Below, in pieces: positions 5,101 through 59,663 of a stretch of 64,000 nt of DNA. The notes beneath the pieces were generated by a model, which had not been told where the DNA came from, did no database searches, and saw only the letters and a list, made by a program, of their open reading frames with translations. Source of the DNA: Cetorhinus maximus. Lineage: Eukaryota. The position numbers and the translations under genes are program-made. Positions within the stretch are counted from its first letter, which is position 1; each line of letters starts with the position of its first letter. Location of the stretch: contig NC_135890.1 in the NCBI RefSeq assembly GCF_964194155.1, positions 95,294,001 to 95,358,000 on the forward strand, read 5' to 3'.

Positions 5101-8100
5101 CCTGCAACCAAGATGACTAAAATAATTTGATTGGTCACTTAACTGATTAATTTTGGCAGGATCTTGTGCACAGATTTGCCACTGCTGCCTTTCCCTACAT
5201 TATAACTGTGACTACACTTCAAATGTACTTTACTGTCTAAAGTGCTTTGATATATCCTAAGGTTGTGAATGATGAGTGTTGGGGGATGGCTAATTCCTGA
5301 ATTGATAGGGAAGTTTATACAGATTGTCTAACCTGGGACTTTGTGTACGAAAGTTCAGTTCATTCCTTCTGAGCTATGTCACCTAGTCCTTCAATCCTAT
5401 GCCCAGCTGATGAACCTTCCTCTATTCCAATTTTTCATAATTTTGAATATCTTAAAAAGACTTCCTATAGATGTGCCCTTTCCTTCGTCTTCTCTAGAGA
5501 TTGAAATTAGAATAAATAATCTTTGCACGTAACCCTATAATTTCAGGAATACCTTTTTTGACCACCAAAATATTGAGATGTCTTTTCTGTTAACTTAAGT
5601 ATCTTGCCATTTAATTTGTAATTCACATTTTCGCTTTCTGATCTTAATTTCACACATATTTTTATCAAATTTTTCATTTGCCACTTCTCTGCCCCAGCTT
5701 GTAATTATTTCTTTGAATTATTGTGCATTGATTAGCTTCATTGGTCACTGCATCTGACTTGGTGTCATTTGTAAACAGCTGATTTGGAGAATATTCCATC
5801 CTCAGTCATTTATAAAATTTCTAAGTTAACAGTTGCCAGATCATTAATCCTTGCCGTTTCACTGACACATGTGCTATCTGCCTTTCGGCCATGCATCAAT
5901 CCAGTTTAATACTTCACCACCTATCCCATGTGTATCAATCTGTTATATGGGGTAATGACTTCCTGAAATCAAATAATTTCCACTGCCTCACTTTTTTTAT
6001 CTGCCAGATCTTCAAATTCAGTCCATTTGTCAGAACTGAACTACTGCTTCTGAACCCAGATTCTCTTCAAACCGACCTTGTCCTCGATCAAACAGTTTCC
6101 TCACAATTGAAATGATAGGTCTGTAATTTTGAGGGTTCACCTCTTGTTGCCTTTTAAAGATGGAGCTCACACTTGCTATTTTCTAATTTTTTGAGATTTC
6201 AGTGGACATTGAAACATCAGTGGGCAGATTTGCAATCTCCACAACCAAGTGACCAGCTTTCTTAGGCAGACCCTGGAGCTTTGTTTAATTTTGGATTTCT
6301 AAATTTTTCTACCACGCTTTCCCTTGTGATTGAGGATCACCACTGTGCTTGCTGACCTACATTTTTTGACCCAGAGCCAATCTCTTAATTTTAAAATTCT
6401 CATCCTTGTTTTCAAATCCATCCATGGCCTTGGCCCTCCCTCTCTCTGTAATCTCCTCCAATCCCACAATTCTCCGAGACATCTGCACTCATCTAATTCT
6501 GTTCTCTTGAGCACCTCTAATTTTAATCACTCCATGATTGATGGCCATGCCTTCAGTTGCCTGGGCCCTACGCGCTGGAATCCCCTCCTTACACTCCTCC
6601 GCCTCTCTACCTTGCTTCCTCCTTTAAAGCACTCATTAAAATACAGCTTTGACCAAATCTTTGGTAATCTGACCCAATATGCCCTTCTGCAGCTCATATT
6701 TTGTTTTATAATGTTACTGTGAATCACCTTGGGACATTTCATCACACTTAAGGTGCATATAAGTTGCTGTTAAAATCTAATGGGTTACATGTGCATCTCT
6801 AGATCCATGAAGACCAAGGAGACTTCAAGAGCTTACAGTTGAGAAATGAGGATTTTTTTTAACCGATCCCACCCAAAAAAAAAAATTTGAACATTGAAAA
6901 TCAGAAAGAAAAGCTTGCATTTAGATTCTATCCCAAAATATTTTACAGCCAATTAAGTATTTTTGAGGTGCAGTCACTGTTGTAACATGGCATTAGGCCC
7001 CTGTATTGCAGCAAGGATATCAGCCAGGTTTCCTGCGCCTGGTTGTTACCCAGTAACAACTTCTCATATGCATGCACACCAGGTGAGAACTAGAGGCCAT
7101 GATGGACTAGGGGTTATGATTAGGTTTTGCCAAGTTGTCAACTCAAACTTCTGCCCTTTCGTTCCCCCTCCCCCAACAAACATGGTAAGATAGTTTAAAA
7201 GCAAAATACTGTGGATGCTGGAAATCTGAAACAAAAACAGAAAATGCTGGAAAAAGTCAGCAGGGCTAACAACATCTGTGGAGAGAGAAACAGTTAACGT
7301 TTCAAGTCCATATGACCCTTGTGTTGGTAAGATAGCTTACTTGCTCTGTCAAGGCCTTTGTTTGAATAGAAGCCAATTGGACTAAGAATTAGGGTGTTTA
7401 TGGTGAAACAATACCCCAGCAAAATGAACACCAGCTTTAGGAGCAGATGCAACTGAGGGCAAGAACAAAGTTTGTTAATTTAAAATTAATATCACTCTAA
7501 ATGCAACTTCTAAAATCTATCAACAGGCAAATGACACTGAACAGGATGACTTAGTTTTGAAAAAATCTACTTCTGACACGGAAAAGGAAAGTGAAAGATC
7601 AGCATCGTCTAAATCTCCCAAAAGCTACAAGCATCATTCTTCAAGATCGCAGTCTAGGTCAAGATCAAGATCTAGGGAGAAGGAACGGTCCAGGACAAGA
7701 TCAAAATCTAGGGAGAAGAAACGGTCGGGTACAAGGTCACGATCTAGGGAGAAGAAACAGTCTTGGTCAAGATCGCGATCTAGGGAGAAGAAACGGTCTA
7801 GGTCAAGATCACAATCTAGGGAAAAGAAACGGTCTAGGTCAAGATCACGATCTAGGGAAAAGAAACGGTCTAGGTCAAGAACAAGATCTAGGGAAAAGAA
7901 ACGGTCTAGGTCAAGGTCAAGATCTAGGGAGAAGAAACGGAAGTCTGGTGTGTACAATGTTCTTATTGGTATATAGGGTTGTAAACCTTTGATATGTTGG
8001 CATTACACTCTCAAGTTGTAAATAGGAAAATAATTGTTACAATTTGAGAGTATACTGTTTTCTTTTAACAGAATATTCTTTCTTCCTTATTTAGGTGGCC

Positions 8101-11100: not shown

Positions 11101-14100
11101 GATCATGATGGGATCACTTATCTTATAGGCTATGTCCATGGTAATTTTATCATCTGGTACATCCTAGACAGTCTTTTGTAATCTTGCTCTGAAAGCTTGG
11201 CTTTATTTTGGCAACATTACAGTGTTTGACCTGAACACCCATTTACAGTAGCCTCGCAGAATTAAAACTACTTTGGTTGGAAATAGTTGATGCAGTTACA
11301 GAGTTTCCCAATTTGTAAAGTGAGAGGAACTGGACACAGGGGAAGGGACATTTATAGAGACAGGTACAGTTTTTAAGGTAAGTACAGCACTGAGTTTGGG
11401 TCAGATCTTAAAATGTAACCAATTTGCATTGAAATGGATCTTTTGCTGCTTGGATTATCTGCTGCAGCTGACTCCTTTGAGAAGTGAAAGGATCTGAACA
11501 GTGCCTAGTGATTGAAATTTAAGCCTGTGAAACTGCATAGGACTAGTAGATAACTGATGTGACAACCTAACTTTATTGTTTGACTGCATTGTGCTTATTA
11601 AGTGTAAAACTACATGTAAAGAAGCTGACATTTGGAACTTTCAGGAACGTGAGAGACAAGTAATCTTTGATTTGAATGAGTTAATTTTAGTTCACGTATA
11701 GCTGGAGAGTTTTTCAGTGTTGTCAGATGATATTTGCAGTGATAAATCTCATGAATACAGGATAATTATGTGGCTAATTATTGGTATCATTGGAACAAGG
11801 AGTAGGCCATTCAGCCCCTTGAACATGTATCGGTGTAACACACTAGTTTTTGATTTCAATATCTTGGGTTTGGTGTGTTGTAAAAAGCATTGAATGTTGA
11901 TAGCATGTTGCTTCACTTCTCCTAAGACATTCAAAGAATCGTTGCTTTTACAACCCACTATTAAATCTTTGTATTATAGTACCCATACTAACTCTTTTTG
12001 TTGCACTATTTTCCTGAAAGAACCAACTTCTTCTTAAAACAGGAACAAAGACGGGACTTAAAAGAGAAAAGTACCACCAAAAAACAAAAATCTTCTGATC
12101 AGCAAAGTGACAAGGAGCATGACAAAGGGAGGGAACGATTAAGTTCAACAGAAAATGGAGAAGACAGGCCAAAGCGAAAAGAAAAGAAACCTTCAAAAGC
12201 TCAAAGTTATTCAAGATCCAGGTCCAGAGAAAGGCAAGTATTAATATCATTAATGTGAATATTTTTAGCATTTGGACAATATCTTTGCCCCATTTCTAGG
12301 ATATGATATTGAAAAGTAATGCGTCTGCCTGATGCGGAGCCAGCCGCTTCTCAAAGCTTTAAATTTAAAAATGGATGGCTATTTCAGTTGAATGCCCCAG
12401 TTGCCTGGTTTCTCCAGGAGCATTCAGTTAAGATAGTTCTCAGGCATATGACTGGTTTTTCTTCTATGTAAACCTGAGTATATATTGTTTCTAATGGTGT
12501 ACTCTAGGCGGCACCGGAGTCGTGAAAAGAAGAAGTCACGTTCACGGAGCAAAGAAAAGAGGTCTCGGAGCCGAGACAAGCGGTCAAAAAGCAGAGACAA
12601 ACGCTCGAGGAGCTGGGACAGGCATTCGAGGAGCCGGGACAAGCGGTCCCGGAGCCTGGGCAGGCGCTCGAGGAGCCGGGGCAGGCGCTCGAGGAGCCGG
12701 GGCAGGCGCTCGAGGAGCCGGGGCAGGCGCTCGAGGAGCCGGGGCAGGCGCTCGAGGAGCCGGGGCAGGCGCTCGAAGAGCCGGGGCAGGCGCTCAAAGA
12801 GCCGGGGCAGGCGCTCAAGGAGCCGAGGCAGGCGGTCAAGGAGCAGAGAAAAAAAACGACGCATAAAATCTCGTTCAAGATCGCGATCGAGACACAGGAT
12901 ACACAGAAGTAGAAGCCGAAGCAAGTAAGTTCATTGCCCTGTTTTTCTTCCCAGTCATATAAAAACACAAAATATCTAACCTATTTAAAATAATTTTTTT
13001 TTTCGTATTCCGTTTTCTCCTGCCTTTTCTGGTCAAAAACTGTACTTCAATAAGGGAGTTAATCATCATCATCATTTTAACTCGAGTACTTGATGCACAT
13101 GTTTATCCACGAATGAGCTTTTCAGTAAGTGTTGACTTACAGCTAAGCCTCATCCTATCTTCACTTTGTATGAATGTGCACACTTATCGGTCAGGAATGA
13201 GAAGTATGGGTGTTTCGCTTCCCTAATCCAGAGCACTGTGGGAAATTTTACCACCCTATCGTTTCGCCAACTGAGATTAGCTAACTCTTTTAAGAACAGA
13301 AAATATATTAAACATATAGATTAAATATCATAATCTGTTTATATTACCTGACCGCCTATTCCATTATAAATTCCTATGTCCACATTTATAATAGAAACAG
13401 CCTATGAAAAGGCCACTTGATCTCATCTGTCTCTACGCAGCACCAGAGAAGATTGACGTTGGGCAGTGACTGCATGGGTTTGTAAGTAGCAATGGTATAG
13501 ACAGCAGAGAGTAGTGGTGAGTGGTTGTTTTTCAAACGGAGGAAAGAGTGAACTGGTTTTCTCTAGAGACTGATATTGGGACCACTGTTTTTGGTGCATT
13601 TATTTGCTGATAATACAGAGCTGGGAAATGCAGTAAGGAGGATAGTAACAAATTCCAGCGGAAGCATAGACTGAATGCTGAAATGGGCAAACACGTGGCA
13701 GAAGAAACTTACTGTAGAGAAGGTGTGGAACTGATTCAGTTTGGTAGAAAAAATGGGAAGAGACCAAAGAAAACTAAATGTTACAGTTTTGAAGGGGGTG
13801 CAGGAATGGGAGGTGCACTTTAGAAAGGATGTAAAGGCCTGAGAGAGGGTGTAGAAGAGATTTATTTGAATGGTGCAAGAGATGAAAGGCTTCATTATGT
13901 GGAAAGACTAGAGAAACTGGGTTTCTCTTCCAAGTAGTAGGATTTTTGATCGTGTAAAGAGAAACTGTTTATCAGTTTTTGAGGTGGCAGGGAGGTTGAG
14001 AAAGCAGTTTAAAAAGGCGTACAGGATAGTTGGCTTTATACTTAAAACCATAGAGTGCAAAAGTCAAGCGTTCTGCTAAGACTTTATAACACTCTGGCTA

Positions 14101-32100: not shown

Positions 32101-34314
32101 AAAATATATTACTCGAGGGAATTTAAAATTATACGAACTAACTGTAGAATCTGTTCGCAACCTTTGGTATCATATTTGACCCCAAGATGAGCTTCCAAGC
32201 CCATATTTGCAACATTACTAAGATCACCCATTTCCACCTCTGTATTGTTGCTCAACTTCAGCCCTGTCTCAGCTCATTTGTTGCTGAAACCGCATTTGTG
32301 CCTTTGTTACCTCTGGGCTTGACTATTCCAACGCATTCCTGGCTGGTCACCAAAATTCTACTGTCCCTAAAATTCTGCTGCCCATGTCTTGCACCATGCC
32401 ATGTTCAGCTACCACCCCTGTGCTCACTAGCCTGTGTTAGCTCCTGGTCAATCAACATCTTAATTTTACAATTCTCATATCTTGTTTTCAAATCCCTCGC
32501 ATGTCCTCGTCCTTCCCTATCTCTATAATTTCCTACAGCCCTTCGTGATGCCTACACTAATCTAATCCTGGCCTCTTGAGCATCCCTGACTTTAAATCGC
32601 TTCACATTGATGGCTGCGCATTCAGTTGCCTAAGCCATAAACTCTGGAATTCCTTCCTTATGCGCCTCTACCTCGCTTTCCTCCTTTTAAGACACTCCTT
32701 AAAACCTACATCTTTGACTAAGCTTTTGATCATCTTACCTCCTTATGCATCTCAGTGTCATATTTTGTTTCATAATGCTCCAGCGAAATGCCTAGAGACT
32801 TTTAAGTTGTTGTTCAAGGTGATGCAGCTTCCTGCCTCTTCCATCCATTGTACAACACTTAATATGGGATCCTGGTGTTCAAATGGAAAACTCACCTGTA
32901 GAAGGAAAGTCTCTTAAAATTCACATTTATACTTTATTGAAGAGCCAAAACAATACAATTTTTATATTCCTTCAATCAAGGATCATCCTGAATGACTGTC
33001 ATTAATTGGCAGTGAACTACTCCACTTCAAAGCCAGACCCGGCAGTGGATGGCTAAAGCTGTTGCCTGAAACCTTGAGACCAATTTCTGCAAGTTCGATG
33101 GAATGTGAATGCAGATTCTACAGCTAGTTCCTATAGTTTTAAATTTCCTTGAGTAATATATTTTAAACTATTTGAAAGAAACCAACTGTGATCCTCTTCT
33201 GAATGTTGCAGTGTTCTGCAGTTTGCAGTAACAGTTGGCATTTTATACAGCTTATCACGACTGGCTTTTCACCTAGTCAGCTAGATATTGAAGAATGAGA
33301 AAGAAGTAACAGTTGAACATGTCCTAAGTGGGCATACTGTAAACCAACGGAGGACTGCATGCTCAGTTGTTAATTTTATTCAGGAACAAGACCAATAAAT
33401 TTTTGAACACCAAGGAGATCTAGGGATATGTAGAGAGGATGGGAAAGTGCAGTTGAGGTAGGAGGTCAGCTACAGTCTTAGTGAATGACAGAGCAGGCTT
33501 GATGGGCTATGTGGCCTATCCTTCCTTGATGGGCTGGGTTGTCATATTTGAGTAGAATGGGCCCATATTCTCCGAAGTTTAGAATAATGAGTGGTGTTCT
33601 CATTGGGCCGTATAAAATTCTTGGTGGGCTTGATAGTGTGGATACTGAGAGGCTGTTTTCCTTGGCTGGAGTGTCCAGAACTAGAGGTTGATCATTTAGG
33701 GCTGAGATGAGAAGTATCTTCATTCAGAGAGTTGAAAATCTTTGAAATTCTCTACACTAGAGGACTGCATGCTCAGTTGTTAATTTTATTCAGGAACAAG
33801 ACCAATAAATTTTTGGACACCAAGGAGATCTAGGGATATGTAGATAGGATGGGAAAGTGCAGTTGAGGTAGGAGGTCAGCTACAGTCTTGGTGAATGACA
33901 GAGCAGGCTTGATGGGCTGTGTGGCCTATCCTTCCTTCCTAAGTTATTGTGAACCAATATTAAAAAATGCCCATGAAAAGGTCTGTGGCCCACAGTGTCA
34001 TCAGCTGAAAAATGTTGTAGCAATCTGAAGGTAAGTCTGCCTTGTGTTACACAACTTGTAACTGTCAAAACACATTGAGAGGCCTGAATTGTCTGGATGT
34101 GTTATTTTATTGTAATTATTTTATTTTGAAGGATGAGGAAGAGATAGGAACCCCAATACCAAATCCTGATGAAAGTTTCAAAACTCTAAAGCAGCAGGAA
34201 GAAGTATTCAGGAACTTGGATGCTCAGTATGAGATGGCACGATCACAAACGCACACACAAAGAGGCATGGGCCTGGGTTTCTCCTCTTCGATGAGAGGAA
34301 TGGACGCAATTTAA
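1729..34314 (+). CDS. RSRC2: Arginine/serine-rich coiled-coil protein 2; join(1729-1734,7527-7947,9315-9361,12043-12233,12508-12924,15592-15699,17236-17318,21129-21352,30963-31052,34132-34314), 589 aa
   Basis: Phase-consistent exons; motifs FRGRNAAMDAQEALARRLERAKKLQEQ, GSVLNVAALLASGTQVTPQIAMAAQMAALQAKALAETG, WEKLNFGNKDQNVKFRKLMGIK, FRNLDAQYEMARSQTHTQRGMGLGF are recognisably RSRC2; adjacent to ZCCHC8 as in other vertebrates. Confidence 0.96.
3284..3538 (+). mobile_element. Penelope-like family B 3' fragment / pLTR
   Basis: Homologous to 53320-53570, which directly follows GIY-YIG C-terminal coding remnants. Confidence 0.75.
3481..3516 (+). ncRNA. Minimal type I hammerhead ribozyme motif
   Basis: ttgtc-CTGAGGA-gt gcaag at-GAAA-agct-TC^ggcaa: stem I ttgtc/ggcaa, 2-bp stem II, palindromic AAGCTT stem III; predicted cleavage after C3511. 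Confidence 0.7.
3863..3978 (+). other. RSRC2: Candidate frameshifting (poison) cassette exon in RSRC2 intron 1
   Basis: tttttgttcaacag| 116 nt GAAG|gtgagc; inclusion shifts the frame to a TAG early in exon 2. Confidence 0.5.
4850..5270 (+). mobile_element. tRNA-headed Deu-domain SINE (SacSINE1/AmnSINE-like)
   Basis: Degenerate A/B boxes then Deu-like core cagatgaagcgttatactgaggccctatctgctctcaggtgg. Confidence 0.7.
6325..6770 (+). mobile_element. L2 LINE 3' end
   Basis: ITTVLADLHFL..NFKILILVFKSIHGLGPPSLCNLLQ..AFSCLGPTRWNPL, typical L2 ORF2 C-terminus. Confidence 0.8.
7194..7324 (-). mobile_element. Penelope family A 3'-end fragment with 11-bp TSD
   Basis: Reverse complement of 1270-1396; tggtaagatag at 7183-7193 and 7325-7335. 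Confidence 0.8.
7527..7947 (+). CDS. RSRC2: RSRC2 exon 2
   Basis: caacag|GCA AAT GAC (ANDTEQDDLVLKK...REKKRKS) G|gtgtgt. Confidence 0.9.
7653..7940 (+). repeat. Coding minisatellite, 8 x 36 bp (SRSRSRSREKKR)
   Basis: Unit tctaggtcaagatcacgatctagggaaaagaaacgg, exactly 8 periods. Confidence 0.95.
8640..8840 (+). mobile_element. CR1 LINE 3' end
   Basis: aatatttttaaggcagaggtaaatagattcttg...gaggggccgaatggcctactcct 3' tail. Confidence 0.7.
9315..9361 (+). CDS. RSRC2: RSRC2 exon 3
   Basis: ttttccag|...(E)SESRKPRQSRSRSKE|gtaatt. Confidence 0.88.
9730..9812 (+). other. RSRC2: Poison cassette exon in RSRC2 intron 3
   Basis: actcag|CGT GCT TAT...AAA TAG(9781)...AAAG|gtaaat; CpG- and GAAGA-rich 83-nt island in an AT-rich intron. 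Confidence 0.7.
12043..12233 (+). CDS. RSRC2: RSRC2 exon 4
   Basis: aaacag|EQRRDLKEK...DKGRERLSSTENGEDR...SRSRE(R)|gcaagt (GC donor). Confidence 0.9.
12508..12924 (+). CDS. RSRC2: RSRC2 exon 5 (RS-repeat exon)
   Basis: ctctag|G RHRSREKKK...RIKSRSRSRSRHRIHRSRSRS(K)|gtaagt. Confidence 0.92.
12542..12856 (+). repeat. Coding minisatellite, 15 x 21 bp (SRSRGRR)
   Basis: Unit tcgaggagccggggcaggcgc; five identical copies at 12668-12772. Confidence 0.95.
13490..14590 (+). mobile_element. Decayed CR1 LINE fragments
   Basis: KSSVLLRLYNTLARPQLMYC, STRGHRFEV, FKQELDKYLKGK. Confidence 0.75.
15592..15699 (+). CDS. RSRC2: RSRC2 exon 6
   Basis: ttgtag|...RTPPAFRGRNAAMDAQEALAR(R)|gtaact. Confidence 0.92.
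17236..17318 (+). CDS. RSRC2: RSRC2 exon 7
   Basis: cccag|G LERAKKLQEQKEKELLEKQKVEQPDVA G|gtaatt. Confidence 0.92.
18447..18488 (+). CDS. RSRC2: Candidate extra 42-nt in-frame RSRC2 exon (DTTNGSLVSVNQPT)
   Basis: tttattttcaacag| ... ACAG|gtagga; symmetric phase 1, open frame. Confidence 0.55.
18800..19230 (-). mobile_element. Decayed CR1 fragment
   Basis: Reverse-complement similarity to CR1 at 41900-42330. Confidence 0.6.
19235..21020 (-). mobile_element. Old copy of the APE-RT LINE found at 22245-25410 (3' part), interrupted by a Penelope insertion
   Basis: Colinear similarity with 22245-23400 (ttcattctcaggatgtggg..., gaagcagctgaagatg...). Confidence 0.75.
20112..20821 (-). mobile_element. 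Penelope family A 3' fragment (GIY-YIG C-terminus + pLTR), 10-bp TSD
   Basis: RLGDHFAEHLRSVRKHDPGLPVACYFN...LEEQHLIFQLGTLQPSGL; ttctgagaaa at 20102-20111 and 20822-20831. Confidence 0.88.
21129..21352 (+). CDS. RSRC2: RSRC2 exon 8
   Basis: taacag|(V)SSGSVLNVAALLASG...KRKLLWQNKKEG|gtgagt. Confidence 0.95.
22245..25412 (-). mobile_element. Near full-length ~3.2-kb single-ORF LINE (APE + RT, CR1/L2 group) with tRNA-like 5' head; degraded
   Basis: APE (PKLGELSDRLVKQQPD; WVGDFNVHHQDW) and RT (ALDIEAAFDRVWHQG; GVPQSSVQDPTIFSCFINDL; MFTDD) fragments; A box TGGTGTAGTGG (25402-25392) and B box GGTTCAAATCC (25333-25323). Confidence 0.9.
25545..26285 (-). mobile_element. CR1 LINE 3' fragments
   Basis: Reverse-strand LFSLEK.RLRGDL-type coding and CR1 3' tails (ccattcggcc, gaagtaggcc). 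Confidence 0.7.
26565..27630 (-). mobile_element. CR1 LINE fragment with nested Penelope fold-back
   Basis: RRLGLHSLGFRRMRGDLIEAYKILIGLNR on - strand; 3' tail cataagaaatagg. Confidence 0.75.
26889..27079. mobile_element. Penelope family A fold-back (two inverted pLTR ends), 11-bp TSD
   Basis: gctggaaaatctcagcaggtctggcagcatctgtggagag and its reverse complement; ttttctgcatc at 26878-26888 and 27080-27090. Confidence 0.85.
27690..28430 (+). mobile_element. Highly decayed CR1 RT fragment
   Basis: FLKLFDKMPHKWL..WLGSWLTEKK..SGVTNG..DDLDLGVGKTISKFAN. Confidence 0.7.
29110..30150 (-). mobile_element. Decayed CR1 fragment
   Basis: LKKQVLLFLEQKRLTGDFKVFKIVKIFDRVNRNKL on - strand. Confidence 0.65.
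29551..29806 (+). mobile_element. tRNA-headed SINE / 5' end of the 22245-25412 LINE family
   Basis: A box TGGCATAGTGG, B box GGTTCGAATCC; colinear with the reverse complement of 25165-25412. Confidence 0.8.
30963..31052 (+). CDS. RSRC2: RSRC2 exon 9
   Basis: ttcaag|DKSQTAELWEKLNFGNKDQNVKFRKLMGIK|gtgagt. Confidence 0.95.
31330..32820 (+). mobile_element. Decayed L2 LINE
   Basis: RT remnants (PRIYA.PHP ~ GVPQGS region; HMCADNTQLY) and MSFQAHICNITKITHFHL..., DGCAFSCLSHKLWNS. Confidence 0.75.
33351..33937 (+). repeat. CR1 3' end with 177-bp local duplication (33351-33527 / 33761-33937)
   Basis: Two copies differing at about 4 positions, 410 bp apart. Confidence 0.85.
34132..34314 (+). CDS. RSRC2: RSRC2 last coding exon
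   Basis: ttgaag|DEEEIG...TQRGMGLGFSSSMRGMDAI* (TAA 34312-34314). Confidence 0.95.
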   Translation, partial: DEEEIGTPIPNPDESFKTLKQQEEVFRNLDAQYEMARSQTHTQRGMGLGFSSSMRGMDAI

Positions 34315-36835: not shown

Positions 36836-37039
36836 TGATGCCTTCAATACCATAAGGTATAGAGTGTTTCCTAGACAATTGTGTTAGAATTTAATTGAGA
36901 AGGTTCCTTTTGCTTTTGTTTCAAACTTTTTTTGGCTTTTAGTTTGATTGAACCATATGTTTCTCACAGTGGTATATAAGCATCACTTATGATAATTCTT
37001 TTTTTGGTGACCTTGGGCATTCCAGTGTAACCCTTACAA

Positions 37040-38580
37040 GAGCAAAATACTGCAGATGCTGGAAATCAATTAAAAATAGAAAATGTTGGAAGTACTCAGC
37101 AGGTCAGGCATCTGTGAAGAGAGAAACAGAGTTAACATTTCAGGTTGGTGACATTTCATCAGAACTGGGAAATGTTACAAATAGTTTTAAGGTTGAGATT
37201 TTATGCAAGTGAAAGGGGGAGGGGTTTAAAAAAGAGTAAAAGAGAAGGTCTGTGATAAGGTGAAAGACAGAAGAGATTAAATGACATGGGTTGGCAGTAC
37301 AAGGCCAATGGAGCGGTAATGGGACAAACAAGATGTGCCCAGAGGAGGTGTGAATAGCAGAAATTGATTAGCTGTCCCTGAAAGGGGCAAAAAAACAGGA
37401 CTATAAAACCAAAGCCTGCAAAGAAAAAGGAAACAAAATGGGGGCAGAGGTTACGGTCTGATGTTGTTGAACTCAATGTCAAATCCAGAAGTCTATAACA
37501 TGCCCAGATGAAATGCTGTCCCCCAAGCTCGTGTTGATCTTCACTGAACAATGCAAGAAGCCAAGGACAGAGAGCAAAGTGGAGAATTAAAATGATAGGT
37601 GACCAACAGCTCAGCCTCAAGCTTGCAGACTAAATGGAGGTGTTCTACAAAGCGGTCACCCAATCTGCATTTGGTCTCTCCAACATAAGAGCAGACTATT
37701 GTGCATGAATATCATAAATTAAATTGGGTGCATGTAAATCGCTGTTTCACCTGGATGGAGTGTTTGGGGCCTTGGATGGTGATAGAGGAGGTAAAAGAGC
37801 AGGTATGCATCTCCTGCATTTGCATGGAAAGGTGCTATGAGAAGGGGAGAGATTGTTGAAGGTGATTGAAGAGTGAATCAAGGTGTTGTAGAGGGAATGT
37901 TTCCTTTGGAATGCTGATAGGAGAGGGGAAGTTCTGTTTGGTGTTGCTGAAGATGGCAGAAATGACAGCGGGTGATGGGTGGAAGGTGAGGACAAGCATA
38001 ATCCTATCATGGGTCTGAGAGGGAGGGGAAAGAGTGAAAGCAGAAAAGTGGGAAATGGGACAAACATGTTCAAGAGCCATGTCAATCACAGTGGGGAATC
38101 CTTAGTTGAAAAAGGAAGACATCAGAAGTGCTGGTATGGAAGGTTACATCATCAGAAGAGATGAAATGGAGAAACTAGGGAAATGGAATGGAAGCAAGGT
38201 GTGAGAAAATGTAGTCAAGGCAGCGGACTTAATAAGAGACTAGAAAGAAGTCAGTACAGTGGGGTAGGAACAGGCTAAAATTATAGGTCTACCACGGCAG
38301 TCATGTTTGTGGATCTTGGGAAGGAGATAGAGGCAGCCTTTTTGGGACTGGAGGATTATCTGGTTGGAAGCCCTGGTGCAATGTCTTGATATTCCGTAGT
38401 GGGGCAATATCTGGGGAACTAAGAGAAAGTGTTGGTGTTTGGCTCAACAAGGTAGAGGTTGGTTTGCCAGACAACAGATTTGATTAAAATGTTAGGAATG
38501 GAGAACAAGAGTGCAGCAAGTTTGGAGGGAGGCAGGTTAGAGTGAGTGAGAGGAGCAGAGAAATTGAGATGGCTTATGAT
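37040..38580 (-). mobile_element. Older, internally deleted Penelope family A element
   Basis: PKIHKHDCRGRPII RT motif, PPSQTHDRIMLVLTFHP, GIY-YIG remnants, pLTR with CTGATGA...GAAA at ~37162-37138. Confidence 0.8.
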
Positions 38581-39099
38581 CAAGAGGGATACATACTATT
38601 ATTGTACTTTTTTAATATTAGTGTGAAAGACAAATAATATGTAAACGTAAGATGACAATTTAAGATGCAATTCATGGATATGGGTCTCTTTTCAGACAAT
38701 CCTAGTAGATTAATGGATCCACAGTTTAGTATCCAAATCATTCTTAACAGTCCAAAACATAAACAAGGTCCAGATCCAAAATATAAACTTGTCTTCCCTT
38801 CACTGATGCGGACCTGTCGTGTGTTTGCAACATTTGTCTTTGTTTCAAACGTCCAGCATCTACAGTATTTTGCGTTTCTCATTCTTAGTCTATTGTTCAA
38901 GTTGCCCCCACCCCAAACCATTCCTGACAACAAACCAAGGATATGGTAATTAAATTTTAATGAAATAACATCTCCAAATGTCTGTGTAGACTTCTAAAAT
39001 GACTTTTTACTGTTCAAGATTATTCAACTTCTTCAAAAGATACCTAAATTGAAGCAGTGACATCTAGTTTAAATACTATCCAAACGCCTACCTAAAAAC

Positions 39100-39993
39100 T
39101 TATTTACATATCAAACTAGAATACAAAACATGAGCTACACCAGTGATTAGATTATGATTGGCAAACTCTAATATAAGCAGCACTATAGGATATTCACTTT
39201 GACGTTTCCACAAGGCAGAATTATCATCAAGCCCCATCCAGCTTAACAGCAAAACCTTCATTGCTTCAGGAAATAGTTTGTCTACCAATTCCTCAGCAGG
39301 TGGTAAGTCTGTGATTCTGTCGATGTGAGTTGTTTTAAACTCTTCTACTTGTCTGCTGATAGAGGCATTCGCAGAATAAAACTGATGACCCAACCAATTA
39401 CTTACAGTATAAAGCATGTGACTACAATAAATAGAATTAACCCCTGTTTCAGTGGTTTCTGTTTTGATAATGAAGTCTTGAAGATGAGTCAGAAGTTGCA
39501 GCATCATATCAGCCAACTTCTGTGCAGATATGTTTTCACTTATTAGGAGTTCTACAAAATCAAGTAACAGTGTAATTGCTTTCTTGTGTTCCTTTTGTAT
39601 TTGCAAAGGTAACATTTTAAAAGCCTGATAAACTGACCTAAACTTGATAGATAAAGAATCATAACCCAAAACCTCCACATATGATGAGTTATCTGCACAA
39701 AGTTCTTCAGTTTGTTGTAAAATTCTTTCCTCTTGTACACAATAGTTATGGTCATCCTGATTAAAAATACTGTTGCAAGTAGGATCGAAGGGTGAAGCAG
39801 CTTCCTGATATACATTAACATCAGATACCAAATTAGCACCTTGAATGCTTGAATGTAATACGTTGGAACTTTTGTGGTTCTTCATTTCAGGAATGCAATT
39901 TTCAAGCAATTCTTCTTTAGGGAAGTTTTGCAGAATCTTAACATCATATTTTTCATTCAGAATGGGGTCATTTATTCTCGCTTTCCACAAATC
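39100..39993 (-). CDS. Uncharacterised gene, last coding exon (297 aa + stop)
   Basis: 894-nt open frame after tctttttcttgtgatag acceptor. Confidence 0.9.
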   Translation of the reverse strand, partial: DLWKARINDPILNEKYDVKILQNFPKEELLENCIPEMKNHKSSNVLHSSIQGANLVSDVNVYQEAASPFDPTCNSIFNQDDHNYCVQEERILQQTEELCADNSSYVEVLGYDSLSIKFRSVYQAFKMLPLQIQKEHKKAITLLLDFVELLISENISAQKLADMMLQLLTHLQDFIIKTETTETGVNSIYCSHMLYTVSNWLGHQFYSANASISRQVEEFKTTHIDRITDLPPAEELVDKLFPEAMKVLLLSWMGLDDNSALWKRQSEYPIVLLILEFANHNLITGVAHVLYSSLICK

Positions 39994-42900
39994 CTATCAC
40001 AAGAAAAAGAAAGTTATGGTAGCCCAAAGTATTAGACAGCCACATAGTTTGATTGAAAACAGAATTGCATTACTTTTTTGCAAAACATGACTTAACATTT
40101 CCGTCATCAATACAGTTGCAGTAAGGAATTCAGCAGTTTGTCAAGGCATATATCATTCATTGGTCTAAAAAACTCAATCCTCCAGTCTGGTCCTCATTGT
40201 ACTCTCTCGCTGCAACTGAACACATTTGTAACTGATATTTTAATTAATAGATCTCAAAAAGTTGAGTAATGCAACTTAAAATGATAATTACTTCATTATT
40301 TGCTTTATTAATGTGTATGTTGTAATACAAAGCTATAGCGCTTTACAATTTTTAAAGTTACGTTACATGAAGAACTAAAATAATGCCAAATAATGATTTA
40401 TAGCTGTGATCTAAACAATAGCTGAAAAATGTTTTACAATTGACATTTATTTCAAATGTTAATGGTACCTGAAGTACAACAAGGACTTCTAACTGTTGCT
40501 CTTTTGTGTACATCTCGAAAGCAACTCGAAACAGTCCCTGAATGCTATAAAACCACAAATTGTTCACAACAGTTGGTATCTTCAGTCCTTCAAATCGAAA
40601 TTCTGCAAAAAAATATTTTCAGAAATCATAAATATGAGAGAAAGAGAAATGGAGAAGAGCTAATCTGAGAGGAGGCTGCAATCAACTTCGTTGACAATCT
40701 GCAGATGTCAAGGGCAGCAAAGGAGGTTGCAGCAGAGGCCATCATCAGAAGTGGGGAAGTCACAGAAAAAGCTAAAGCCAGCAGGGGAAATGATATGTAT
40801 AAAAGAGGTAAAATTAGTCATGGAATAGTTGATTGCAAGTCAAAGGAAGTCATGAGAAAACTGTATAGCACTCTGGTTAAACCACAACTTGAGTACTGTG
40901 TCTGGTTCCGGTCATCAAAACAAATCGAGGCATTTAAGCCCTGGAAATAGGGCAGAGAAGAGCCATGTAGCTGATCCCTACTATCCGGGGTCTGAATTAT
41001 GAAAACAGACTGGAGAAACTTCAATGTTTCAAACTTGAAAAGAGGCATCTTATTGAAGTATGCAAGATAAATCTAATAAATTATTTTAAATAAAAGGTGT
41101 GTGAGGAGGACATCATCTTTCAGTCTTCCCTAGACTCAGAAGTGTTGCCAGAGGACTGGAGAATTGCAAACATTATGCCCTTGTTCAAAAAAGGTTGCAA
41201 GGATAAGCCCAGCAATTGTAGACCGATCAATTTAACTTCAGTGGTGGGCAAGATTCTAGAAACAATTATTCGGGATAGAATTGGTAGCCACATGAAAAAA
41301 AGGGGTGATAAGGAAGAGCCAGCATTGATTTCTAAAGGGGAAATCGCATTTATCTAACTTGCTGGAGTTTTTTGAAGAGGTAACAGAAAAGGTCAATGAG
41401 GGTAATGCTGTTGATGTGACGTATAGACTTTGAAAAGGCATTTGACACCACACATCCGATGTGAGAAAAGTTATTGCTCATGGAATAAAAGGGACAGTAG
41501 CAACATGGATACAAAATTGGCTGAACAATAGGAAGCAGAGAGTAATGGTCAATGGATATTTTTTGGGCTGAAGGAAAGTTTGTAGTGGAGTTCCCCAGGG
41601 TCGGTATTGAGACCCTTGCTGTTCCTGATATATATTAATGATCTAGATCTTAGTGTGCAGGGGACAATTTCAAGGTTTAGGAATGATACAAAGACTGGGA
41701 ATGTTTCGAACTGTGAGGAGGATGGTGTGGAGCTTCAAGAGGACATAGACAAGTTGGGGTGGGCAGATAGGTGGCAGATGAAGTTTAATGCGGAGAAGTG
41801 TGAGGTGATGCATTTTTGTAGTAAGAACATGGACAAATAATATAAAATAAGGGGTGAAATTTTGAAGGGGGTGCAGGAGCAGAAAGGCTTAGGTGTATAT
41901 GTGCATAGCTCATTGAAGGTGGCAGGACAGGTGGAGAGAGCAGTTAATAAAGCATATAGCATCCTGGACTTTATTAATAGGGGCATAAAATACAAGAGCA
42001 AGGAGGTTATGCTGAATTTATATAAGAACTAGTTAGACCTCAGGTGGAATATTCTGTACAGTTCTGGGCACCATATTATAGGAAGGATGTGAACACTTTG
42101 GAGAGTGCAGAAGAGGTTTACAAGAATGGTTCCAGGGATAAGAAGCTTCTGCTATGAGGATAGATTGGAAAGGTTGGGACTGTTCTCCTTGGAGAGAAGA
42201 AGGCTGAGAGGAGATTTGATTGAGATATTCAAAATCATGAGGGGGCTGGACAGAGTAGATAGGGAGAGGCTGTTCCCACTCGTAAAAGGATTAAGACCAA
42301 GAGGGCACTGATTTAAAGTGATTTGCAAAAGAAGCAAGTGTGACATGAGAAAAAACTTTTTCACACGAGTGGTTCAGGTCTGGAATGTACTACCTGGAAG
42401 TGAGGTGGGCGCAGGCTCAATCGAGGCATTCAAGAGGACATTAGATGATTACTTGAATAGAAACAATACAAGGATACAGGGGAAAGGCAGGGCAATGGCA
42501 CTAGGTCCTAATGCTCATTTGGAGAGCCAGTGCAAACATGATGGGCCAAATGGCCTCCTTCCGTGCCATTAAGATTCTGTGACAAAAGAGACATCATTTC
42601 AAACTCGTTAAAGCAGATATTACTTGATATCAGCAAGGTTTTTTCATCCTGCAAAGAATGATCACTATACACATTGGACTTCCAAACAGAAAAGTGGAGT
42701 TGAATACCATGGACTTATTTAAGAAGCAAATGGATAAGAAGCAATGGGAGGCCTTTAGGGTCATTCTGCAAGAACAAACCAGGACTGATGAACTAAGATG
42801 CGCTAAATGGTCTTCATCAAACTTAATTATCTTGTGTATATGGAAGACACAGCTAAAGTGAGTTGTCACACTTGTTTTCCTTCTACAGATCTGCAACCTC

Positions 42901-44512
42901 TTTCAAATAGCCCTATTGATTCTACTAGATTCAAATCAGAATTAATATAGTACCTGAACTAAAGCTGAGCTTAGTTGCCAATCCTTTCTTTGCAAATTTT
43001 GCATGAATTCTTGGATGATTTTCACTGCGGATGCCAGTTTTTGCAACAACATCAGCACCAAGGAAAAGAGGAGTCAGGATTTCCTAAAAGTGAAGGAATG
43101 GAGGAATTAAAAATATGCGAGATATATTACTAGACATAAAATACATTGACTTTCTTGTTTTGTTTTCTTTTCTGTTACTTTTCCATGCACCATATCTCAT
43201 TCTTACTGAATGAGTTCTCAATGAGACTTAATAATCGAGCAAGGTAAGTTTGTAGCTTTCTGATTATCAGCCAACATGTGTCATTGCAAGTAATACTGTG
43301 TCTACAATTAAGTAAGAATGGAACCAGGTGACTGCAATCACACCCAGTTGGACAACAGTGTAGAGGCATTGTAGGAGGATGGTGTGGTCAGCTGTGTTAA
43401 AGGCTGCAAACAGGCTATCATGAGTATTATCATTTAGATGCTACCGTGTTAAAGGCTGCAAACAGGTTATCATGAGTATGATCATTTAGATGCTGGAGCC
43501 GTGGTTGCTAATCTATTTAAGAACTAAAAAAAGTTTTGAAAATCACAGATCTAGGCTGATACTCCAAGTATACTGTCTGAGATGTCATATTTTGGAAGAG
43601 ACATTAAACCAAGGCCCTGTCTGCCCTATCATGTAGGCATACAATATACTAAGAGCAGGGAAGTCCTCCCTGGTCCACTGGCCAATGTTTATCTTTCAAC
43701 TACAGGTCATATGATCATTATCACATTGCCGTTTGAGGGAGTTTGCTGTGCGTAAATTGGCTTCTGTGTTTGCTATGTTACAATAGTGATGACACTTTAA
43801 TAAAAGGTACTTCATTAGCTGTAAAGCACTGAATTGTGAAAGGTGCTGTATAAATGCAAGACTTCTTTTTTTCCTTTGAACTCTTAATTTTGTTTTGACC
43901 AGTAGTCTTGTGCAGTTCTTAAACAATTTTGTTTAGCCTGGATATTAAGTCTGATGCCAAATAAGATTGACATTTTCTCGTGTCCCTATATACCACACAA
44001 AAGAAAATAAAGAAATGAACATTGACTAGAGAGTATTCATGACTAGATTCACATTTCAATTAAACAAAGCATGCAAGCAACGATTCATATCTGCATAGCT
44101 ATCATGTATTCAGTTGTAATTGATAACCTAAAGGGACGCTGAACCTAATGCTATAGCTGTTCGAAGCCTTCGCTATGCACTAAAGTTTAAACTTTGGTTT
44201 TTAATGTATTCAAATAAATTAATTCATAGTAATTACATACATTAAATTACAGCTATCATCATACCCTCCTCTGTTTATAACGTAAATGGTATTTAAGAAT
44301 TAGGAAGTTACATTTTATCATCCAAAACAGTAAGACTTTGGAACTTTATATAATGAAAACTCTAATTTACTATTTTAAATAATACTAACCTCCACCTGAA
44401 AATCTTGACACACCTTAATTGAATTGGGAGGACTCAAGAATACAAATCTGATTTTCCTGAGACCTACACTCCATTCTGGTAAACGCACGGGAAAACGTTC
44501 AAAATATGCCAT
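39100..44512 (-). CDS. Uncharacterised protein, 426 aa; complement(join(39100-39993,40469-40602,42954-43083,44390-44512))
   Basis: Four GT-AG exons with matching phases (0,1,0) give one open frame [23 protein letters not shown]...[23 protein letters not shown]...[17 protein letters not shown]...[31 protein letters not shown]; strong Kozak ACCATGG; no transposon motifs. Confidence 0.88.
40469..40602 (-). CDS. Uncharacterised gene, coding exon 3
   Basis: ttttgcag|(E)[44 protein letters not shown]|gtacca. Confidence 0.87.
41097..42582 (+). mobile_element. CR1 LINE, 5'-truncated ~1.5 kb
   Basis: [65 protein letters not shown]; tail gattctgtga. Confidence 0.92.
42954..43083 (-). CDS. Uncharacterised gene, coding exon 2
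   Basis: cttttag|[44 protein letters not shown]|gtacta. Confidence 0.85.
43394..43494. repeat. Tandem duplication, 2 x ~52 bp
   Basis: gtgttaaaggctgcaaacagg(c/t)tatcatgagtat(t/g)atcatttagatgct twice. Confidence 0.85.
43550..43870 (+). mobile_element. Deu-domain SINE
   Basis: ggaagagacattaaaccaaggccctgtctgccct core; tail aggtgctgtataaatgcaag. Confidence 0.7.
44390..44512 (-). CDS. Uncharacterised gene, coding exon 1
   Basis: acceptor ttcctccag| at 44535/44534, ACCATGG at 44512, GAG|gttagt donor. Confidence 0.8.
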
Positions 44513-44929
44513 GGTTCACTGTTTGCCACTTCCCCTGGAGGAACAGAATTACTCAGATCTCACAATGAAGCCAGTTCCTATTCAGAAAGTAACTCCAAAA
44601 TAAAAAAAAAAGAGGCAAGTCTTCAAATGCGCAACCGGTTGATCAGCATCTGAAGGAGAAAAGCGAGTGTCTCCGATATCGTGGCTCTTCATCAGCAAGG
44701 TGGCCTAGGTCTACCAGAATCTCCTCCCAGCATTTTCTTCATGTTGACAGCTACACAAAACAATTGGTCTTCATGTCCACAAGAACTTCATGAACACGGC
44801 TCTCCGACTTATTGAGACTCCAGTGCTACATTAATATTATCAGCAATAATAATCAGTCGTTAATAATTCGAGCTGATTGATTTAGGCCAAGCAGCTTCCT
44901 CTATCGCCATGGAAGCAGGTAGGGTCACA

Positions 44930-45340
44930 ATCGCTCGCACTCTGAACTCCGCCCTTTAACCCGGCCGACGTCACTTACCGCTTAGTGACAAGATGGCCGC
45001 CGAGAGGGTGGATTTAGATTTCGGGGATCGCGAATTGTTCGAGGAGTTTGAAGATTCAAAACCTTCTCACCTTCGCTTTAACGACTCGGATGATGCGGGC
45101 GAGGTGGAAACTATGAGGAAGAAGCTGCTGGAATGTGAGGAGAGAGTAGGTTACTTGAAGGTGGAGAATATCCTTCCATTTATAGGAAATGAGCCTCGCA
45201 AAATCAAACGGGGCGCCTCGGGAGCGATTGGCTCGTGTCGGAGAAACCGCGTAAAGGAGACGAGGCAGAACGGCAGTTTAACGGCGTTCGCTCGCTGCCC
45301 GCAAGCGTTCACTCTGGTTCTGTCAGGTCGCGGTTACCCG
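44930..45340. promoter_or_regulatory. CpG-island bidirectional promoter (ZCCHC8 / uncharacterised gene)
   Basis: CpG-rich; GC box CCGCCC ~44949, CRE-like GACGTCA 44967-44973, YY1-type AAGATGGC over the ZCCHC8 ATG. Confidence 0.75.
44993..45167 (+). CDS. ZCCHC8: ZCCHC8 exon 1
   Basis: MAAERVDLDFGDRELF...YLKVE A|ATATCCTT (U12 donor). Confidence 0.93.
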
Positions 45341-57300: not shown

Positions 57301-59663
57301 CATGGCATTGAATAATGTTTGTTTAACTCATGGGTTTTTGTTTAACTTCATTGGTCCTGCAGTGTAGAACTTAAAGAAGCTCTGGGGATGACTGATGAAA
57401 CTCTCCCACCATTTATCTATCGGATGCGTCGATTGGGTTATCCACCTGGATGGTTACTAGAGACCCAACAAGAGAATTCTGGGCTTGCTTTATATGACGG
57501 AAAAGGTGAAGCATTCCAAATACGAACTTTGTGAATATATAGATATTGGAAATGCATGTGGTATATTTAATCATTTCATAATCAATGTATTGATGCATTT
57601 TTTCTTTTGTTTATTTGCCATAGGGTAGTTTTGCTTTTATAATTAGCTTACACTTACTGGATACTTGGAAAAACCCTACCATACCCCAATCCAGTTAATG
57701 TCTCCAATCATTCTGTTGCGGGATATGATGAAGGGGATTACCCTTCTACTTCTGCTGTTGAACATGTTGAACTTGCCATATTATCGTAAAATGCATTATT
57801 CAAAAGCTAAATTTTGGAGAATAATGGAAAAAAATTGAGACCAGCAAGAAACTCTGAATAAGTGTTTCTGCTAGTAAATGATGATATTCTCATTAACCAA
57901 GGAATCTATGTCTGGCATTCATTGCTTTGCACCATGAAATATGTGCTGTTCACCTCAGTGACTCTGTTTATTAAACCACACATGACTCTTTGTTTAGAAA
58001 CAGCTTGCCCATTAAAATGTTTTAGCTGATAACTCCCATCAAATATATAATGTAGGTCTCCATCTCTTTGAACTATTTTTTGTTCCTTTTTATACTTGAA
58101 CTGTTAAACACCATGAAATTCTGACAGAGTATTTTTTTAAAGTGACCTCAGATTTTTCAATTGCAAGAAATCCATCTGACAACGTATTAGAGTGCCATCA
58201 ACACGTAGCAAGATGCAAGTTTTGTATTTTCCCTTCTTGAAATTCCCTACTAACAGCACCAGGGGAATGCCACCCAATATTAAGGCCGCAACCATTTAGA
58301 GATTTCAAGATTTTTACCAAACAGAAATGAAGAATTAAACAGTTTTTGCCTGAGTCAGGAGAATGTGTGACTTGTTTAAAAGCATATCTTCTTGGGGGGT
58401 GGGGGGGAAATACAATATTTGCAACAGAATTTTAAAGAAACTGAAAAGCTCATGCCTTTGTTCTAAAAGTTGGGGCCATTTTTTTCTCAGGCACAGTTAT
58501 AAACATATTTTAACAGTTTTCTCTATTTTATATATAGATTCGAGTGACAGTGAAACGGAACATGACAAACAACATCTAAAAACTCATTCTCCATCCTATG
58601 ACACCAGTAAACTAATAGATTATGCAGGATTCAATGCTGTCATTCCAAAAGGGATTCAGGATGTAAGCATTGCACTTTGTATGCTCCAATCTATTTTTGT
58701 TCCCCACCATACCCTTAGTTTCTTCTGTCTTTCCTCAAATGTGCTGGTTAATGCTGGACTTTGCATCTTCCAAGCTTTGGCCAACCAATTCCTACCTTTT
58801 CAGCCTGGATTGGTGAGCATTTTGACCATGGAGCATCACAACCTTGTCATTGCTTTGGAAAATTGAAGCAATCACTGGAGTTATTAAAAGCAGGATCCTG
58901 GTCTGCATTTTTTTCTCTCACTTCACTTCAGGGCTAATTCTGTTCCTAGCTGAGAGCAGCTAACTAAGGACAGACCAAGAATCAAAACTTAAATCTTCCT
59001 GACTCTTATGGCTTAGCAACAGAGCTATCACAGGATCCTTCAATCAATGTTCAAACAGTATTTGCCTTGCACAAAACTTCAGTGTTAACATTCAGTAAAT
59101 GTTATTTTTATCTTTTTTTTGGCCTCCAGGTAGCCCCTTCTCGGCCATTTGTATGTTTGTGAATTAGATGTCTTGAATGTAGTCCATAGACCCAGTTCCT
59201 GTGCAAATTAACAACACCGTCATGATTTTCTCAGTATCATCTCTTACTACAAACTGTGTAAACACGATTCCAAATATTTAGATTTAAAACTTTGCCTACA
59301 CTTTCAAAAATAAATGAAGCAAGCCTTTTGCTGATTAACCACCAGCATGAGGCTATATTAGCTGTGGAAATTCTAGTCCGAATAACTTTTTATTGCTTTA
59401 GGATATAAGGTTCATTTTTAAAACTTTGTAGAAAAAGATGTAATGAAATAAAGTAGCTCAGGTAGCTCTCCTCAGTGATTATTTTGCTCCGTAGCTGATT
59501 TTATGTATGCGGTGATATGCGCCAGAAAGTTTTTCTAACTGATTTGCTTCGGTATTTTGTTTTATGGTGTCCTTAGGAATGGAGGCAGTATGGTTCAATT
59601 CCAATGCAGTCCCATCACCTGAAGGAATACTTCGCACATCAATTGGTTGCTGATTATCCCACT
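44993..59663 (+). CDS. ZCCHC8: Zinc finger CCHC domain-containing protein 8 (NEXT complex), exons 1-12, 3'-incomplete; join(44993-45167,47108-47150,47581-47655,47762-47867,47951-48028,51102-51205,53879-53944,54060-54120,56780-56910,57363-57505,58538-58662,59577-59663)
   Basis: DFGDRELFEEF; ENQELKRKLN; VVGSVQYFTNFCLDKLGQPLLNENPQLTDGWEIPKY; zinc knuckle CFNCGSTEHQLKDC; PSP domain LPPFIYRMRRLGYPPGWL; all phases consistent. Confidence 0.96.
45725..46001 (-). mobile_element. Bipartite SINE: 5' head + 3' tail of the 22245-25412 LINE
   Basis: 45740-45782 matches LINE tail 22270-22313, joined directly to a match of LINE head 25151-25412. Confidence 0.8.
47108..47150 (+). CDS. ZCCHC8: ZCCHC8 exon 2
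   Basis: tcccttaac..ttaAC|(N)QELKRKLNLLTQP(S)|gtaaca. Confidence 0.9.
47581..47655 (+). CDS. ZCCHC8: ZCCHC8 exon 3
   Basis: KIVVSDSKTDGPMVQILFMNNSIS(K)|gtaagt. Confidence 0.92.
47762..47867 (+). CDS. ZCCHC8: ZCCHC8 exon 4
   Basis: QFHQEIEDFITGLV...EKTSFNVKPQ|gtgaat. Confidence 0.92.
47951..48028 (+). CDS. ZCCHC8: ZCCHC8 exon 5
   Basis: PSSVLLEEHLKV...IKEAFH|gtaagt. Confidence 0.92.
48100..48260 (+). mobile_element. Ancient LF-SINE-like fragment
   Basis: ggttcaaccc...agtcagctgatctcagcttgggcgg motif; related inverted remnants near 13170-13290 and 58900-59030. Confidence 0.5.
51102..51205 (+). CDS. ZCCHC8: ZCCHC8 exon 6
   Basis: VVGSVQYFTNFCLDKLGQPLLNENPQLTDGWEIP(K)|GTATCCTG. Confidence 0.93.
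51283..51961. mobile_element. GC-rich non-autonomous DNA transposon (MITE, Harbinger-like ends)
   Basis: Termini ggccagaatt...aattctagcc are inverted; sharp GC-content shift; AT/TA flanks. Confidence 0.6.
52541..53570. mobile_element. Penelope family B ~1-kb fold-back (two inverted 3' ends)
   Basis: 52541-~52990 is the diverged reverse complement of ~53160-53570; ends atattgctga...tcagcaatat; right arm encodes DSAIGQCLLNNP..FKI..LEAAYIHTWGPILCKQ (GIY-YIG C-terminus). Confidence 0.85.
53879..53944 (+). CDS. ZCCHC8: ZCCHC8 exon 7
   Basis: YQQVFAQVVSLDGQEMELKAK(R)|gtatgt. Confidence 0.9.
54060..54120 (+). CDS. ZCCHC8: ZCCHC8 exon 8 (CCHC knuckle)
   Basis: PKPCCFNCGSTEHQLKDCPK|gtaaga. Confidence 0.94.
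54352..55838 (-). mobile_element. Internally deleted 1.5-kb copy of the tRNA-headed APE-RT LINE
   Basis: Head + APE (VREPTRGKNILELIFTN..SIGRSDHCT) match 24110-25400, then jump at ~54550 to the 3' tail matching 22245-22455; RT missing. Confidence 0.88.
55850..56120 (+). mobile_element. Deu-domain SINE, degraded
   Basis: ggtactgtcttttggatgagatgttaaactgag core. Confidence 0.6.
56780..56910 (+). CDS. ZCCHC8: ZCCHC8 exon 9
   Basis: PRDLARISEKRKEFM...RYHAERFEKFKPGVI(S)|gtaaaa. Confidence 0.93.
57363..57505 (+). CDS. ZCCHC8: ZCCHC8 exon 10 (PSP domain)
   Basis: ELKEALGMTDETLPPFIYRMRRLGYPPGWL...SGLALYDGK G|gtgaag. Confidence 0.94.
58538..58662 (+). CDS. ZCCHC8: ZCCHC8 exon 11
   Basis: (D)SSDSETE...YDTSKLIDYAGFNAVIPKGIQD|gtaagc. 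Confidence 0.9.
59577..59663 (+). CDS. ZCCHC8: ZCCHC8 exon 12
   Basis: EWRQYGSIPMQSHHLKEYFAHQLVADYPT|gtaagt. Confidence 0.9.

Follow-up and report, generated by a model that had tools for sequence, protein, structure and literature searches.

An uncharacterised shark gene with a predicted Bro-N-like domain and a candidate HCF-1-binding motif

What does the gene between RSRC2 and ZCCHC8 in the shark Cetorhinus maximus encode, and to which family, if any, does it belong? The window, that is, the whole stretch of DNA analysed, comprises 64,000 nucleotides (nt) of contig NC_135890.1 (95,294,001 to 95,358,000, forward strand), and the gene lies on its minus strand; positions below are those of the window. 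A sequence-only reading had described an intact gene of 426 amino acids (aa) without a recognisable domain. Our analysis places it in a real, ancient, unstudied, regulator-like animal family. We moderately favour the view that its product is a nuclear DNA-binding regulator acting through a Bro-N-like domain and, in bilaterians, docking HCF-1 through a short motif, in a manner resembling that of THAP proteins with another fold.

Gene structure, identity and selection

Joined across GT-AG introns of 1306, 2351 and 475 nt (introns 1, 2 and 3), the four exons in the window form a single open frame of 426 aa that holds every peptide quoted earlier, and the intact, phase-compatible gene first proposed is thus upheld. 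Its parts are as follows.

44513-44929, minus strand: 5′ untranslated portion of exon 1, reaching at least 44929, with 8 upstream ATGs (contigs of runs X3, to 44929, and X9, to 44920)
44390-44512, minus strand: coding exon 1 (123 nt, aa 1-41), which opens the Bro-N-like domain; contig joint 43082/44389 in 3 of 4 runs
42954-43083, minus strand: coding exon 2 (130 nt, aa 42-84), with the PLFLGAD strand-helix and the predicted recognition helix (contigs and model)
42970-43026, minus strand: predicted DNA-recognition helix and turn (aa 61-79), with N63, R66, H68, K70, K73 and K79; helix 61-73 in the model, role putative
40469-40602, minus strand: coding exon 3 (134 nt, aa 85-129), with the wing strand and the WFYSIQG helix (contigs)
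39100-39993, minus strand: coding exon 4 (894 nt, aa 130-426 and stop), with the end of the N-terminal domain, the disordered acidic linker (aa 154-239) and the helical C-terminal domain; contig joint 39992/40468 in 3 of 4 runs
39739-39753, minus strand: DHNYC (aa 210-214), candidate HCF-1-binding motif (sequence and [DE]HxY conservation)
39103-39660, minus strand: conserved all-helical C-terminal domain (aa 241-426; conservation and model)
38955-39099, minus strand: 3′ untranslated region, with ATTAAA at 38961-38956 (sequence; contig ends at 38955-39040)

The evidence for splicing comes from contigs of 4 of 19 sequencing runs, all from related shark species and presumed to be RNA, which were compared with two stretches flanking intron 2. 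Contigs from three of these four runs (three studies) skip introns 1 and 3 at exactly the predicted GT-AG ends and show the spliced form in these relatives. All four exons follow in order on one contig in X3 (1767 nt) and on one in X5 (1714 nt), and X9 joins exons 1-3 on a single contig; the junction across intron 2 is placed by contig coordinates and by a loose contig end matching exon 2. Run X7, with partial coverage only, contained no splice joint. The gene end previously set at 44534 has to be withdrawn, because exon 1 runs unspliced to at least 44929 in the contigs, giving a 5′ untranslated region of about 420 nt with no exon boundary at that position. Every short frame opened by the 8 upstream ATGs closes ahead of the main start. 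The minus strand also holds a strong donor-like site at 44978 and an acceptor-like site at 44535, and splicing between them would remove all 8 upstream ATGs; no 5′ isoform using acceptor 44535 was present in the contigs examined, though rare forms tend to be lost from contigs.

Compared with the RefSeq protein si:ch211-110p13.9 of the white shark, Carcharodon carcharias, the protein has 6 changed residues in 426 (98.6% identity), and the gene is therefore the annotated, uncharacterised orthologue; judged by its sequence, it is the counterpart of zebrafish si:ch211-110p13.9. Databases label the zebrafish gene and its RefSeq orthologues, which are this same gene, as uncharacterised, and genome annotations of fishes and amphibians already include the gene under that label. 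Across the 4.0-Gb genome only its four exons match, making it single-copy. Scans of Pfam (with the exons and two alignments), PHROGs and, by sequence, the PDB returned no consistent match, in agreement with the earlier view that the gene belongs to no catalogued family and is not a transposase. An origin as a transposase or other mobile element was rejected on the lack of a consistent Pfam match, the single copy and a tree that broadly follows animal groups. In the folded domains (213 silent and 801 replacement sites), the differences listed, whose power is low, number 4 silent to 1 replacement in X3 and 5 to 3 in X9; on the proposed check of replacement against silent substitution rates (dN/dS), these domains appear to evolve far from neutrally, with the gene under purifying selection. 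No paper naming the gene was found in the open-access literature searched, and none of the open-access Bro-N papers listed there, judged by title or abstract start, concerned an animal family.

Predicted fold and distribution across animals

The impression that the protein lacks a recognisable domain did not survive structure prediction. AlphaFold models of two whole proteins, from the shark and Nematostella, both place the N-terminal domain in the Bro-N/KilA-N/Ski-Dachshund winged-helix group, with viral Bro-N domains as the nearest look-alikes by Foldseek, language-model features and a weak profile match. Against viral models, 23 of 50 and 22 of 50 top Foldseek rows for the two models are named Bro or Bro-N (probability up to 0.99, E mostly above 0.001), while the whole shark model matched nothing in the PDB by Foldseek at E ≤0.001. 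In Pfam scans of 35 vertebrate members (E ≤5) and of 32 diverse ones (E ≤10), no row named the Bro-N family PF02498. Profile comparison with Bro-N scored 28-30 (probability 39-51%; null maximum 20; weak for subsets), aligning PLFLGADV with the WF-A-DV block and WFYSIQGLF with the I-E-GL(Y/F) block. The C-terminal domain of the whole-protein models matched only a generic helical hairpin; helical tethering subunits, suggested by the ESM Atlas for exon 4 (0.79-0.82), fell below the tool's bar and were not used.

Comparison with known families sharpens this placement. Bro-N proteins (PF02498; baculovirus BRO, phage antirepressors, giant-virus and Polinton proteins) have the same predicted fold and element order. 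Unlike them, the shark family lies below Pfam detection, has its own C-terminal domain and HCF-1-type motif, and is a cellular, intron-containing, single-copy and vertically inherited animal gene. The Mbp1-type winged-helix fold of fungal KilA-N/APSES proteins (Mbp1, Swi6, PCG2, Bqt4; PF04383) appears in the shark model too, but the shark protein is animal rather than fungal and has no Pfam match to their other domains; KilA-N/APSES gave no Pfam row and a profile score of 15.7 against 13 bacterial KilA-N rows, amounting to no profile similarity. The model likewise seems to share the fold of Ski/Sno/Dachshund (PF02437) and related animal chromatin domains (INI1-N, PHF10, BCOR, DNTTIP1), but the shark domain ends in a C-terminal helix and its N-terminal hairpin is longer, both features of Bro-N. 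There was no Ski/Sno/Dachshund Pfam row, this locus lies outside the 8 genome matches, and comparison with 8 shark Ski/Dach/Skor domains scored 12.6, at null level in a shallow 8-row alignment, showing no profile similarity.

The family was traced by three homologue searches (the best 120 of 367, of 437 and of 403 matches) and a profile search of 50%-identity clusters (the best 150 of 194, 30 of which were looked up). Among the matches listed are cartilaginous and ray-finned fishes, coelacanth, lungfish and amphibians; Branchiostoma, two echinoderms, the centipede Strigamia, seven molluscs and a nemertean; and, outside Bilateria, the cnidarians Nematostella, Xenia and Rhopilema, Trichoplax and the sponge Corticium. 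The gene is thus pan-animal, from sponge to amphibians, and not restricted to vertebrates or a single lineage as had been supposed. The suggested loss in mammals held and apparently extends to all amniotes: none of the 170 named vertebrate proteins among the matches listed, grouped by species name and with a caecilian query included, is from an amniote, and each unnamed vertebrate-like row has a fish or amphibian as its nearest relative. The sequences therefore make loss in the amniote ancestor, affecting reptiles, birds and mammals, likely rather than proven, because these negatives cover the listed matches and not amniote genomes; we take it that human has no such gene at this locus. In a quick, preliminary tree of 70 rows, the jawed vertebrates group together (100) and branch in the order expected, the protostomes form a group of their own (89), and the sponge and Trichoplax branches are long and unplaced. 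Four full-length cnidarian-like or sponge-like homologues (P0196, P0224, P0231, P0237) come from contigs 0.6-4 Mb long, a hint that early-branching animals may carry the gene without introns.

The HCF-1-type motif and the proposed function

The sequence-only reading had also pointed out that DHNY fits the HCF-1-binding consensus, and the comparative data make this interpretation likely. [DE]HxY is present in 192 of 204 vertebrate-like homologues (shuffles give 9.7), always ahead of the C-domain core in an otherwise unalignable linker, and this linker (aa 154-239) is predicted to be disordered in the shark model, with a predicted local distance difference test (pLDDT) score mostly below 50. The motif could be placed by landmarks in 127 of the 137 other homologues; among these 127 it lies in a loop inserted towards the end of the C-domain in 55 (shuffles 0.75) and in the linker in 3, the rows in all such counts being related and not independent events. 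On the tree, the loop motif marks protostomes and the linker motif marks vertebrates, Branchiostoma and a crinoid; the named non-bilaterian members are without [DE]HxY. The extended HCF-1 rules (small x, Y+1, Y+2), taken from a preprint describing a mutational scan of HCF-1 ligands (bioRxiv 10.64898/2026.03.19.712392), hold for 193 of 194 vertebrate motifs and 52 of 75 others. At H-4 the shark has Asn and not the hydrophobic residue preferred by HCF-1 ligands, and the same preprint reports that many consensus peptides do not bind. It is likely, on sequence grounds, that the conserved motif lets the protein recruit the chromatin scaffold HCF-1. A basic cluster resembling a nuclear localisation signal occurs in the C-domain loop of 38 of 127 invertebrate proteins (shuffles 2.7) and never in the vertebrate loop. 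The Strigamia protein (four copies) and three unnamed homologues, together P0198, P0208, P0219 and P0298, carry four to five [DE]HxY copies; wherever these could be placed, they form a tandem array in the C-domain loop.

The closest functional parallel is with THAP-type HCF-1 recruiters (THAP1, THAP11), which, like the shark protein as predicted, combine an N-terminal nucleic-acid-binding domain, a disordered linker with [DE]HxY and a helical C-terminus. The shark protein differs from them in its predicted fold and in having no THAP zinc finger, and its family carries the motif at different sites in chordates and protostomes; membership of the THAP family was rejected, with no Pfam row among the 35 and 32 members scanned and no conserved Cys pattern in the N-terminal domain. 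THAP11 carries DHxY according to the preprint cited above. In the model we propose, the protein would be nuclear and its predicted winged-helix domain would bind DNA by means of helix 61-73 and the wing. DHNY, in the disordered linker, would dock in the HCF-1 Kelch pocket, and HCF-1 could then bring partners such as OGT and histone-modifying complexes to the bound sites, with the helical C-domain serving as a putative protein-interaction module.

The chief competitor, to which we give appreciably less weight, is that the protein is an adaptor subunit of HCF-1-linked chromatin complexes, with a winged-helix-like domain that binds either other proteins or DNA of any sequence. The fold group does include Bqt4 bound to Rap1 and the Ski/SnoN domains, the C-domain is conserved as much as the N-domain and resembles an interaction module, and one study (PMC4509781) describes INI1, BCOR and DNTTIP1 as complex subunits with the same fold and argues against sequence-specific binding by INI1. 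Against this, one helix face carries R, K, H and N residues that hardly vary between sponge and frog, as would suit a nucleic-acid surface; in the predicted helix and turn, positions 66 and 79 hold K or R in 98% of the 53 rows of the invertebrate set and in all 43 vertebrate rows. The closest look-alikes are Bro-N domains, which a secondary source (PMC12721341) describes as DNA-binding and as frequent in phages and large DNA viruses.

It is rather improbable that DHxY binds another partner, or a metal together with the following Cys, in a nucleic-acid binder without any HCF-1 link. The missing motif in non-bilaterian members, the Pro at Y+2 in many invertebrate copies and a Cys at Y+1 in 191 of 193 vertebrate motifs, stricter than the published rules require, would all suit such a role, but the exact [DE]HxY order is kept (permutations are found in 0-8 of 204, the overlapping HxDY form excepted) and the motif also turns up at another site and as tandem copies, where Ser, Val, Gly or Thr takes the place of Cys. 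Least probable is an RNA-binding partner of ZCCHC8 in nuclear RNA decay: the two opposite-strand transcripts begin at most 63 bp apart, but head-to-head layouts are common among unrelated housekeeping genes, and no RNA-binding or exosome-related feature was found.

If the preferred reading, a DNA-binding regulator that docks HCF-1, is correct, an unrecognised DNA-binding chromatin-regulator family joins the ancestral animal toolkit, one that escapes domain-based transcription-factor catalogues, since it lacks a Pfam domain and, apparently, a human copy. Zebrafish and Xenopus keep the gene, making its function directly testable, and the two motif positions offer a clean natural case of short-linear-motif turnover. 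The apparent loss at the amniote base raises the question of which role of the gene amniotes no longer need.

Origin, neighbouring genes and repeats

Where the family came from is a more speculative matter. We tentatively consider, as a possibility on the doubtful side, that a viral Bro-N DNA-binding protein entered the animal lineage ahead of the last common ancestor shared by sponges and all other animals, was kept as a single-copy host gene, furnished later with the HCF-1 motif at two places (chordate linker, protostome C-loop) and then lost in amniotes. Such an event would mirror in animals the viral KilA-N capture behind fungal SBF, a gain from a virus argued for in PMC4862756, and a virus-type DNA-binding domain would then have given rise to a host regulator family for a second time. 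Weighing against capture, descent from a cellular Ski/INI1-type lineage would fit the predicted fold equally well. Searches by tblastn and pattern scans found no relatives in phage genomes, viral contigs or prokaryote genomes; they reach close relatives only and are therefore without bearing on a deep viral origin.

The flanking genes were recognised by their domains, from which we take them to be RSRC2 (RS-rich exons and a SMAP domain at 34168-34278, plus strand) and ZCCHC8 (a CCHC knuckle at 54073 and a PSP domain at 57361-57486, both plus strand). In this genome and the related sharks whose contigs were compared, the gene stands head-to-head with ZCCHC8, with contig 5′ ends at 44929 (minus) and 44993-45013 (plus).

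44930-44992, no strand: gap of at most 63 bp separating the divergent transcripts, likely a shared promoter (contig ends; CpG rise)
44993-45169, plus strand: first coding exon of ZCCHC8 (contigs; identity from the downstream CCHC and PSP domains)

The interval 44930-44992 is likely a shared promoter, and contains what we take to be a CRE-like GACGTCA (44967) and a GC box (44949). For the suggested co-regulation with the nuclear RNA-decay factor ZCCHC8, this head-to-head layout is the sole basis, and nothing found ties the gene functionally to RNA decay. The ZCCHC8 contigs start at or beyond its start codon, and the 5′ ends of both genes may therefore overlap. A presumed YY1-like site, AAGATGGC, at 44990-44997 (plus) overlaps that start codon.

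Several repeats complete the picture of the window. Within intron 2, at 40700-42600 (plus), decayed reverse-transcriptase-like frames run antisense to the gene and presumably derive from a CR1-type long interspersed element. RSRC2 has long Arg-Ser repeat frames at 7479-7973 and 12452-12925 (plus), with 30 and 39 RS/SR pairs, the second consisting of near-perfect tandem units, suggesting that the RS tract, as judged from sequence, has expanded in this shark. Repeat-like stretches occupy 1-900 and about 37000-38600; the latter holds GIY-YIG-like peptide remnants, which we assume to be of a Penelope-type element, and many contigs pile up at 38510-38575.
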